Below, piece by piece: positions 12,946-14,134 of a stretch of DNA of 32,000 nt. The stretch's first letter is position 1. Each line of letters opens with the position of its first letter. Position numbers and translations under genes: made by a program. The notes under the pieces are model-generated. The model was not told where the DNA came from. It was given only the letters and a program-made list of their open reading frames with translations, and did not search any database. This DNA comes from Nitrosopumilus maritimus SCM1. GTDB lineage: Archaea > Thermoproteota > Nitrososphaeria > Nitrososphaerales > Nitrosopumilaceae. The stretch covers positions 540,001 through 572,000 of the forward strand of contig NC_010085.1 in the NCBI RefSeq assembly GCF_000018465.1, written 5' to 3'.

Positions 12946-13557
12946 ATGGTTAACTATCCTCCTTATGTTAATGGATATGGTCTTTTACCAAATTTGTTTA
13001 ATGCTATAAAAACTGCCAACGTTCCAACTAAATTTAATCGAGATTTTGTTTCTACAATGTTAGGACTAAAATCTTCAAGTTATAATGCTATGATCCCCTT
13101 TATGAAAAATCTGGGATTTTTAGATCAAGGAAATGTTCCTACTCAACACTATCGAGATTATAGAGATGAAAGTTTGGGGAAAAAAATCATGGCACAGAGA
13201 GTAAAAGAAGCATATGGTGAGTTATTTACTGCTAATGAATATGCTCATAGATTAACCAAAGAACAAGTTGCAGCAAAACTTAGAACAATTCTTGGTGTTG
13301 GTGAAGACGATAAAACAGTAATTGTTGTAGCTGCAACATTTGCTGAATTATGTACTCTGGGAGATTTTGAAGGTAGTGAAATTACTAAAAATGAAAATGG
13401 AGAAACAGAAAATCTTCCTGATATCATTAGATCTTCTCCTGTATCTTCAAAGATTGGATTAAACTATACCATTAATCTTAATTTGCCTGCAACAACAGAC
13501 ATCGAAGTTTTTAATGCTATCTTCAAAAGTTTGAAGGAACATATTCTAAATGAGTGA
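12946..13557 (+). CDS. DUF5343-like protein (putative wHTH N-domain + short C-terminal domain)
   Basis: 203 aa. The N-terminus YPPYVNGYGLLPNLFNAIKTANVPTKFNRDFVSTMLGLKSSSYNAMIPFMKNLGFLD matches my memory of the DUF5343 pattern. C-terminus: LNYTINLNLPATTDIEVFNAIFKSLKEHI. The family assignment is from recall only. Confidence 0.5.
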   Translation: MVNYPPYVNGYGLLPNLFNAIKTANVPTKFNRDFVSTMLGLKSSSYNAMIPFMKNLGFLDQGNVPTQHYRDYRDESLGKKIMAQRVKEAYGELFTANEYAHRLTKEQVAAKLRTILGVGEDDKTVIVVAATFAELCTLGDFEGSEITKNENGETENLPDIIRSSPVSSKIGLNYTINLNLPATTDIEVFNAIFKSLKEHILNE

Positions 13558-14134
13558 AAAATTTTCTGAAAAAATTCGAAACTATGGAATGCGTAATTTT
13601 ATGCTAGAAACAGAATTAGCAAAACTAGAACAACGTGGGATTGAGATTGGTCATATAAACACTGTCAAAAAAGATGAAAATGTAGATCCTGAATTATTTG
13701 ATTCGGATATTAGAAAAAGTGCAAAAAGAATGGCTGATTTTTACGTGGTCTATTTTTCCTTAGAAAATTCTGTGAGGAGATTAATTAAAGAAACTTTGAC
13801 AGAAAAATATGGGAAAGATTGGTGGGAAAAAGGTATTCCTAAAGGAATCAAAGATAATGTCAAACAAATTCAAGAGGATGAAAAAGATTCTGTAATGGCT
13901 ATTCGTTCTGCTGATGACCCATTAACTTATACGAATTTTGGAGAATTAATTCCAATAATAGAATCTCAATGGGATCTGTTTTCAGATCGATTAAGGGGGA
14001 AAAAAGCAATGCAGCAAATCCTTTCTCAATTCAATAAAACTAGAAATTTAATTGCACATAGTTGTGAATTGGAACCTGATGAGGTCACTCGTTTAGAATT
14101 ACTTGTAAAAGATTGGCAGAGAATCCAAACCTGA
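13550..14134 (+). CDS. Swt1-like HEPN domain protein (predicted RNase)
   Basis: 194 aa. C-terminal R-x4-H HEPN motif in FNKTRNLIAHSCELEPDEV. All-helical composition. The ATG overlaps the upstream gene by 8 nt (ATGAGTGA). Confidence 0.65.
   Translation: MSEKFSEKIRNYGMRNFMLETELAKLEQRGIEIGHINTVKKDENVDPELFDSDIRKSAKRMADFYVVYFSLENSVRRLIKETLTEKYGKDWWEKGIPKGIKDNVKQIQEDEKDSVMAIRSADDPLTYTNFGELIPIIESQWDLFSDRLRGKKAMQQILSQFNKTRNLIAHSCELEPDEVTRLELLVKDWQRIQT

Follow-up and report, generated by a model that had tools for sequence, protein, structure and literature searches.

A conserved C-terminal tail as candidate neutraliser of the HEPN protein in a PDC-M34 gene pair of Nitrosopumilus maritimus SCM1

We analysed a pair of overlapping genes, here called A and B, in a 32,000-nucleotide stretch of the Nitrosopumilus maritimus SCM1 genome (contig NC_010085.1, positions 540,001 to 572,000 of the forward strand), referred to below as the window. 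A carries an N-terminal DUF5343 domain and B a HEPN domain of the Swt1 type, and the pairing is catalogued already as a defence candidate, PDC-M34, yet uncharacterised. We found that the C-terminal tail of A is the best-conserved segment of the two proteins, and that it is kept beside an intact B even in lineages that have lost the DUF5343 domain of A. The tail appears to be the part that the toxin gene cannot do without, which is the new point of this analysis, and we propose that it is the element that binds and neutralises the HEPN protein B. The two genes and their parts, in window coordinates, are as follows.

12946..13557, forward strand: gene A, ATG start, 203 residues.
12946..13380, forward strand: N-terminal DUF5343 domain of A, residues 1–145, a putative sensor or regulatory domain (Pfam PF17278 and AlphaFold2).
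13381..13455, forward strand: disordered, variable linker of A, residues 146–170 (predicted local distance difference test score, pLDDT, <50 over residues 147–169, AlphaFold2).
13456..13557, forward strand: C-terminal tail of A, GLNYTINLNLPATTDIEVFNAIFKSLKEHILNE, residues 171–203, with the stop codon (conservation, AlphaFold2, deletion variants).
13550..13557, forward strand: overlap of A and B, ATGAGTGA, 8 nt, holding the start of B and the stop of A.
13550..14134, forward strand: gene B, ATG start, 194 residues.
13550..13687, forward strand: family-specific N-terminal extension of B, residues 1–46 (AlphaFold2, conservation, full-length coverage by the PDC-M34B profile).
13688..14134, forward strand: Swt1/Abi2-clade HEPN domain of B, residues 47–194, a predicted RNase effector or toxin (Pfam PF18731).
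14042..14059, forward strand: catalytic motif R165-N-L-I-A-H170 (R-x4-H) of B, with R165 at 14042-14044 and H170 at 14057-14059.

In alignments reaching down to 30% identity, the tail (residues 171–198) had a top-residue frequency of 0.86 and an entropy of 0.52, the highest conservation of any segment of A or B. The mean top-residue frequency was 0.73 for the HEPN motif region of B, 0.63 for the winged helix-turn-helix (wHTH)-like region of A and 0.50 for the helical bundle of A, and in the linker it was 0.18, with an entropy of 3.5 bits. Among 128 unique A/B pairs of 30–65% identity, 25 positions of A were conserved in at least 95%, 12 of them in the tail (Y174, I176, L180, P181, T183, V188, F189, N190, I192, F193, K194 and L196). 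AlphaFold2 models of A and B, built from 67–68 homologues per alignment, present the tail as an extended segment (residues ~173–183) followed by an amphipathic helix (residues 186–202). An earlier note on this DNA had pointed to a conserved-looking motif at the C-terminus of A, which is indeed present at residues ~172–199.

With the tail as the only query, an exhaustive phmmer search returned 417 protein matches. The matches listed were full-length A, fragments of A (including N-terminal ones) or deletion chimeras, and in all 150 of them except P0335 and P0252 the tail stood at the C-terminus or a few residues from it. The tail is thus specific to the A family, and we rejected the possibility that it is a portable module of other families. 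P0252, a repeat protein of 2,661 residues, was judged a spurious match: ten of its stretches match the strand-like half of the query only (residues 4–26), which probably reflects an alternating pattern like that of the tail in an otherwise unrelated protein.

Natural deletion variants point to the same segment. The DUF5343 domain has been lost in four independent lineages, which keep the tail open reading frame (ORF) and an intact, overlapping HEPN gene with its catalytic motif.

L082 and L083 (two samples): a 45-residue tail ORF with its own ATG and an upstream GAGG motif, joined to a truncated PIN gene and overlapping an intact 196-residue HEPN gene.
L094: the linker and tail alone are left of A, adjoining a 195-residue B with the motif RGPIAH.
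L115: the first ~87 residues of A are replaced, beside a B with RNVIAH.
L117: the form seen in L115, with a further internal deletion that yields a separate 45-residue tail ORF; its B is identical to that of L115.
L179 and L180 (two samples): an unrelated N-terminus fused to the linker and tail, adjoining a 198-residue B with RGPIAH.

Among ~160 loci there was no intact B without the tail. B itself is frameshifted beside an intact A in L001, L045 and L064, as would be expected if loss of the toxin is harmless. This asymmetry fits a toxin and its neutraliser and points to the tail as the neutralising part; the suggestion in the earlier note that A is a sensor or antitoxin partner gains support from these variants.

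We then compared the loci in which each gene occurs. When one genome per species was searched with A as the seed, 132 loci were confirmed, of which the best 80 were analysed. B lies directly 3' of A in 78 of these 80, the other two contigs ending just past A, and it accompanies A in 5/5 IMG/VR viral contigs that carry A, so that B follows A in 83/83 evaluable loci (78 genome loci and 5 IMG/VR contigs). Among 80 metagenome loci seeded with B, 60 have a full A upstream, 14 have an A that is cut by the contig end and retains the tail, and in 5 the A gene is partial or split and keeps the tail; the one remaining locus has no upstream sequence, and at least the tail is therefore present before B in 79/79 evaluable loci. 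The A–B linkage is essentially absolute, and the co-occurrence proposed from the window extends far beyond it. Pairwise identities of A and of B are correlated (r=0.93, 74 pairs), and the two genes thus travel and diverge together. No conserved third gene was found near the pair. In homologues, with starts assigned by longest ORF, most junctions of A and B are overlaps of 4 or 8 nt, or the two genes are a few nt apart.

The hosts of the best 80 loci include Acidobacteriota, Nitrospirota, Proteobacteria, Cyanobacteria, Bacteroidota, Chloroflexota and Saccharibacteria among bacteria, and Nitrososphaerota, Bathyarchaeia, Methanosarcinales, Methanobacteriota and Nanoarchaeota among archaea. The window A is 56–58% identical to copies from Nitrospirota, Terriglobia and Bathyarchaeota and 48% identical to copies in other Nitrosopumilus metagenome-assembled genomes (MAGs). 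This patchy spread, with the window A nearer to distant phyla than to other Nitrosopumilus, indicates horizontal transfer. The cassette is a module that is self-contained and moves horizontally. Plasmids and phages were considered as carriers and rejected: the plasmid and phage collections gave no match, no PHROG family matched A or B, and the pair occurs on only five IMG/VR contigs, of which L089, the one inspected, was not clearly viral.

A matched Pfam PF17278 (DUF5343) over residues 6–145 (E=6.6e-55, 185.7 bits against a cut-off of 27, profile positions 1–139 of 140), in agreement with the earlier assignment. Its N-terminal domain (residues 1–145) is helical in the AlphaFold2 model, with pLDDT >90, and consists of three helices and a short β-hairpin (residues 11–65) followed by a helical bundle (residues 67–138). 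A YPPYV motif at the N-terminus is invariant in homologues. The earlier note had described this domain as wHTH-like, and the topology of residues 11–65 is compatible with such a fold; however, the domain gave no significant structural (Foldseek) or sequence-profile match to solved structures in the PDB, the top wHTH match in Foldseek being NsrR (5n08, E=2.0, probability 0.13), and no wHTH Pfam family recurred at E≤1 among 68 members of the A family. The linker is rich in E, P, K and S and is 7–40 residues long among homologues. Many tail-bearing cluster representatives (P0268–P0382) have a length of 100–170 residues, and their first residue coincides with a conserved methionine of A (profile positions 49, 82 and 96). 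Gene-calling artefacts on contigs that are short or carry errors may explain them, or they may be true forms of A, shortened at the N-terminus and lacking the first helices.

The assignment of B to the Swt1-like HEPN proteins was likewise borne out by the Pfam search (PF18731, HEPN_Swt1; E=4.1e-12, 46.8 bits against a cut-off of 27.5), and the same family was matched by 67/67 relatives of B. Since the DUF5343 and HEPN_Swt1 matches both exceed the gathering thresholds, A and B are judged to be real genes, not chance ORFs. Abi_2 was matched weakly by 44/67 relatives, all below threshold (best E=6e-4), and by the window B not at all at E≤1. The model of B is all-helical, with a pLDDT of 85. The stretch TRNLIAH, read earlier as a HEPN R-x4-H motif at the end of the protein, does contain this motif, but it occupies residues 164–170 and thus lies ~25 residues short of the C-terminus rather than at the very end. 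R165, A169 and H170 are conserved in at least 95% of the 128 pairs, as are F12 and E20 in the N-terminal extension, which is modelled as a long helix (residues 3–28) followed by a loop; we conjecture that this extension may serve in dimerisation or docking of the tail. From family and motif we propose that B, as a HEPN ribonuclease in the Abi2/Swt1 clade, is competent for catalysis and would act as a toxic effector.

Taking these results together, we favour with moderate confidence the reading that the pair is a toxin–antitoxin (TA)-like or abortive-infection module in which the tail of A neutralises the HEPN RNase B. A would be made first and B translated by coupling to it, with A as the obligatory partner of B. 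The tail, an extended strand and amphipathic helix on a flexible linker, would bind B and hold it inactive, while the DUF5343 domain would be the regulatory or sensing domain that decides when inhibition is released. Release might follow recognition of a virus-derived cue, or turnover of A when host gene expression shuts off; the freed B would then cleave cellular and/or viral RNA and arrest the infected cell. The order of the pair, with the presumed antitoxin gene first and overlapping its partner, matches the type II logic described for HEPN gene dyads, in which the antitoxin gene comes first and the genes overlap (Anantharaman et al. 2013, PMC3710099), and counts in favour of this reading. 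The interpretation given in the earlier note is supported, with four corrections: the pair is catalogued, the proposed wHTH fold of A found no significant family or structural match, the defence-island setting is atypical and archaeal copies are common.

Several observations weigh against such a module. The top covariation pairs between the tail and B (A-K197 with B-E32, G34, I168 and D42) are shared by A-F141, which lies outside the tail; since A-F141 couples to the same columns of B as A-K197, the covariation is a sub-clade signature and locates no interface. The deletion variants carry a geometric bias, as deletions entering from upstream remove the N-terminal domain of A first, and several of the frameshifted or split-gene copies are in MAGs that we take to be long-read derived, so that frameshifts may be sequencing errors. 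The median isoelectric points are 7.05 for A and 5.2 for B, which is not the classic pattern of acidic antitoxin and basic toxin, and DNA binding by A was unsupported in the fold and family searches. The nearest neighbours in the 80 loci are mostly housekeeping genes (ribonucleotide reductase, CTP synthase, GroEL, Lon and LepA), and apart from the window, Type I restriction–modification (R-M) genes lie within 6 kb only in L030 and L093. The A/B family was absent from the 72,556 plasmids and 50,697 phage records searched, and our literature search found no published experiments, in any organism, on toxicity, RNase activity or defence by the pair. A more far-reaching version of the proposal, in which the tail peptide of ~30 residues is a minimal inhibitor 'plug', nearly universal for the HEPN RNase family of B, DUF5343 a new infection sensor that withdraws the plug, and PDC-M34 an abortive-infection system that works unchanged in bacteria and archaea, we put forward only tentatively.

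The alternative that survives best, although we hold it to be rather doubtful, is a plain addiction-type TA module without any anti-viral role, which persists since its loss kills the cell and which hitch-hikes on genomic islands, here one that bears an integrase. The structural evidence is the same for it as for a module with a defence role, and it predicts just what is seen, an intact B that always has the tail beside it. Most copies are solitary insertions among housekeeping genes, and copies often adjoin other TA modules (HepT/MNT in L084 and L094; a VapBC remnant and DUF433/DUF5615 in L082 and L085). However, the cassette recurs beside or inside Type I R-M loci (the window, L030 and L093), which is the origin of its flag as a defence candidate, and it is missing from the searched plasmids, where stabilisation modules are usually common. 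The large, highly conserved N-terminal domain of 145 residues also exceeds what a minimal antitoxin needs, and B can coexist with forms of A that lack it, which suggests that the domain has a further role in sensing. Abortive infection is a function of many TA modules too, and the two readings are compatible.

It is unlikely, in our view, that A is instead an activator or targeting subunit, with DUF5343 binding nucleic acid or a viral component, the tail recruiting or switching on the HEPN dimer, and B inert when alone. Such an arrangement would account for the strict linkage and co-divergence of A and B, for a tail more conserved than expected of a typical disordered antitoxin tail, for the large, conserved N-terminal domain with its invariant YPPYV motif, and for the acidic nature of B, which might need a partner to engage RNA. 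What speaks against it is the fate of B: were B inert, it would often be expected to stay intact for some time at loci that have lost the tail, which was never seen in ~160 loci, and the four lineages that keep the tail and an intact B without the supposed targeting domain are hard to explain if the usefulness of the system lies in that domain. A housekeeping or regulatory RNA-processing pair, in which an RNA-binding protein would work with a HEPN RNase on host RNA outside any genetic conflict, is very improbable: eukaryotic Swt1, Las1 and other HEPN proteins do act in core RNA processing (PMC3710099) and many copies are flanked by housekeeping genes, but the cassette has a patchy spread that is incongruent with bacterial and archaeal phylogeny, variable contexts with no conserved neighbours, and decayed and frameshifted copies, it adjoins integrases, transposases and R-M genes, and it is missing from most genomes of any given lineage.

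The pair is a member of the candidate system PDC-M34 by all sequence-level criteria. A matched the PADLOC profile for PDC-M34A (PDLC04589; E=9.7e-55, residues 5–200, profile positions 5–207 of 208) and B that for PDC-M34B (PDLC04592; E=6.9e-48, residues 7–191, profile positions 4–188 of 192), and the two genes are adjacent, on the same strand and in the order A then B, as in the cassette definition FAM_01148>>FAM_01657. PDC-M34 is cassette CAS_00130, with 97 RefSeq instances, and is one of 145 predicted candidates that were chosen because their genes lie inside BREX, DISARM and Type I R-M loci, and that were then entered in PADLOC (Payne et al. 2024, doi 10.1101/2024.01.29.577857); it is a prediction by 'guilt by embedding'. 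In the text and supplementary files of Payne et al. that we searched, we found neither the architecture of the tail nor the statistics of linkage nor the spread in archaea. A literature search found no paper mentioning DUF5343, PF18731 or PDC-M34, the pair is not mentioned in the DefensePredictor preprint, in which many new systems were validated, nor covered by a survey of thaumarchaeal mobile elements, and no NCBIfam model matched it. The earlier note held that, to its author's knowledge, the pairing had no experimentally described function, and none in archaea; we found no experimental work on it in any organism, but the pairing had been catalogued and is common in several archaeal phyla.

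We compared the pair with related systems. PDC-M34 has the same two families in the same order, and the window copy, like its founding examples, lies beside a Type I R-M locus; there is no structural difference. AbiD, AbiD1 and AbiF, the lactococcal proteins of Pfam Abi_2, belong to the Abi2/Swt1 HEPN clade and are predicted suicide RNase effectors (Anantharaman et al. 2013, PMC3710099). They share the HEPN clade and the R-x4-H motif with B, but they are single polypeptides with their own N-terminal domains, whereas here the regulatory part is a separate, coupled protein. Given the sub-threshold matches and the division of the system over two genes, B is not an Abi_2 protein and only a relative within the clade.

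The antitoxin of the HEPN-MNT (HepT-MntA) systems, a nucleotidyltransferase, acts on the toxin by AMPylating it, consistent with the titles of PDB entries 7ae2 and 7ae9. These dyads occur widely in both bacteria and archaea, and in them the antitoxin gene precedes that of the HEPN RNase toxin (PMC3710099). Our pair is likewise a two-gene dyad with the partner first and the HEPN gene second, but B is of a different HEPN family, and since A lacks a nucleotidyltransferase signature (no NTP_transf_2 or Polbeta match), the pair is not a HEPN-MNT (type VII TA) system. The toxins RnlA and LsoA are held by direct binding of a small, labile protein antitoxin. RnlA-RnlB and LsoA-LsoB, of the RNase LS family, have HEPN RNase toxins that act against phage T4 (PMC3710099); unlike in our pair, the toxin is large and multi-domain and the antitoxin gene lies downstream, and neither A nor B resembles them in sequence or profile. 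The anticodon nucleases PrrC and RloC are also HEPN RNases, embedded in Type I R-M loci and latent until infection. In PrrC, which contains an ABC-ATPase domain, silencing is the work of the R-M complex itself, whereas B has a dedicated partner and usually no R-M locus nearby; as no ATPase domain was found in the 194 residues of B, it is not PrrC/RloC-like.

The layout of A can also be compared with that of canonical type II antitoxins. Phd, CcdA, MazE and RelB have a folded N-terminal domain and a flexible C-terminal segment that wraps the toxin. A resembles them in its folded N-terminal domain and flexible C-terminal segment, and in a gene that lies upstream of, and overlaps, the toxin gene. 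It differs in that its 145-residue N-terminal domain is far larger and without a confirmed DNA-binding fold, and in that the tail is exceptionally conserved rather than fast-evolving. In gene layout and distribution the pair agrees with a type II TA system: two small, co-directional, overlapping genes with the presumed antitoxin first, and a mobile, patchy spread.

HEPN RNases are among the commonest effectors in prokaryotic immunity and TA biology. To our knowledge, their silencing is understood for a few families only, through MNT-mediated AMPylation, binding by RnlB, control by cyclic oligoadenylate and masking by R-M complexes. The present cassette appears to silence its HEPN protein differently, by a short and extremely conserved peptide tethered to a large DUF, and its hosts belong to many phyla of bacteria and archaea and include a marine ammonia oxidiser that is in culture and is ecologically important worldwide. 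The deletion variants yield a simple prediction, that the tail alone neutralises the HEPN protein. If this holds, PDC-M34 would pass from a database placeholder to a defined system and DUF5343 would gain a function, with no current concept overturned; if the tentative plug-and-sensor reading also holds, this would be the first abortive-infection system of such a kind defined in ammonia-oxidising archaea. We regard the finding as sound, but a specialist would not be very surprised by it.

Finally, we examined the surroundings of the pair in the window. A and B are 100% identical to N. maritimus entries at NCBI, where they are named 'DUF5343 domain-containing protein' (A) and 'Swt1 family HEPN domain-containing protein' (B), and other genes of the window are archaeal (TFIIB, SUI1, CofC/CofD, DUF2070 and a Tsr3-like gene). 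The features outside the pair are as follows.

11790..12731, reverse strand: tyrosine recombinase gene (Phage_integrase, E=3e-15).
12917..12924, forward strand: possible archaeal TATA box, TTTTTATA, 22–29 nt 5' of the start codon of A.
147-1508, reverse strand: hsdS gene 1, flanking hsdM.
3154-4470, forward strand: hsdS gene 2, flanking hsdM.
8173-10365: fused HSDR_N_2/N6 methylase/specificity gene, 730 residues; best PADLOC match MADS mad2 (E=1e-41), with further matches to Type IIG and Type I methylase models.
10362-10865: ORF of 167 residues, no family match, overlapping the fusion gene by 4 nt.
10928-11785: ORF of 285 residues, no family match, next after the 167-residue ORF.

The features that the earlier note had read directly from the letters were recovered. 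The overlap ATGAGTGA at 13550-13557 is 8 nt long, which implies translational coupling, and the spacer between A and the divergent recombinase gene is AT-rich (214 nt, GC ~0.29). The distance of the possible TTTTTATA box from the start of A would imply a leaderless or short-leader transcript. There was no operator-like repeat 5' of A above the AT-rich background, inverted repeats there being at chance level. Scans for sigma-70 promoters and terminators near A also gave chance-level results; these are bacterial signals and not applicable to an archaeal host.

Upstream of the pair lies a complete Type I R-M set (hsdS, hsdM, a second hsdS, hsdR and a YgjP-like peptidase gene). The fusion gene is Type IIG-like or MADS mad2-like and, with the 167- and 285-residue ORFs, could be part of an uncharacterised R-M or MADS-like system. 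The defence-island setting described in the earlier note is thus real in the window, with its Type I R-M set and fusion gene, but it is an exception for the family, as most copies stand alone. A minority of the neighbours in the 80 loci are defence or mobility genes (Cas1, MADS components, methylases, AbiEii-like ATPases and IS200 transposases). In L030 (914-7195, thaumarchaeal MAG REEA70) the pair is directly divergent from hsdM-hsdS-hsdR, a tighter association with R-M than in the window, and in L093 it lies directly 3' of hsdM. The A protein of L030 is just 51% identical to that of the window, which suggests independent acquisitions beside Type I R-M loci. No tRNA gene, convincing att-like direct repeat or clear compositional step marked the boundaries of the island in the window.

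TA modules adjoin the cassette in unrelated metagenomes, which suggests a clustering of TA-type modules: a VapB gene with a truncated PIN gene (the VapBC remnant), DUF433/DUF5615 pairs, the latter in both L082 and L085, and MNT/HepT-like pairs in L084 (1284-1969) and L094 (3-639); the stretches concerned are 2474-2877 and 3846-4430 in L082 and 1712-2284 in L085. Within the window, a 217-residue ORF at 20659-21312, which stands among housekeeping genes and has no PADLOC match, shows weak, sub-threshold similarity to the restriction-endonuclease fold of Mrr_cat and Hjc (E ~1e-3 to 1e-2). An inverted repeat of 65 nt (89% complementary) connects the 5' ends of the two oppositely oriented hsdS genes (1432-1496 and 3160-3224), while their proteins are otherwise only 35% identical; together with the tyrosine recombinase in the island, this resembles the invertible, phase-variable Type I R-M specificity loci of bacteria.

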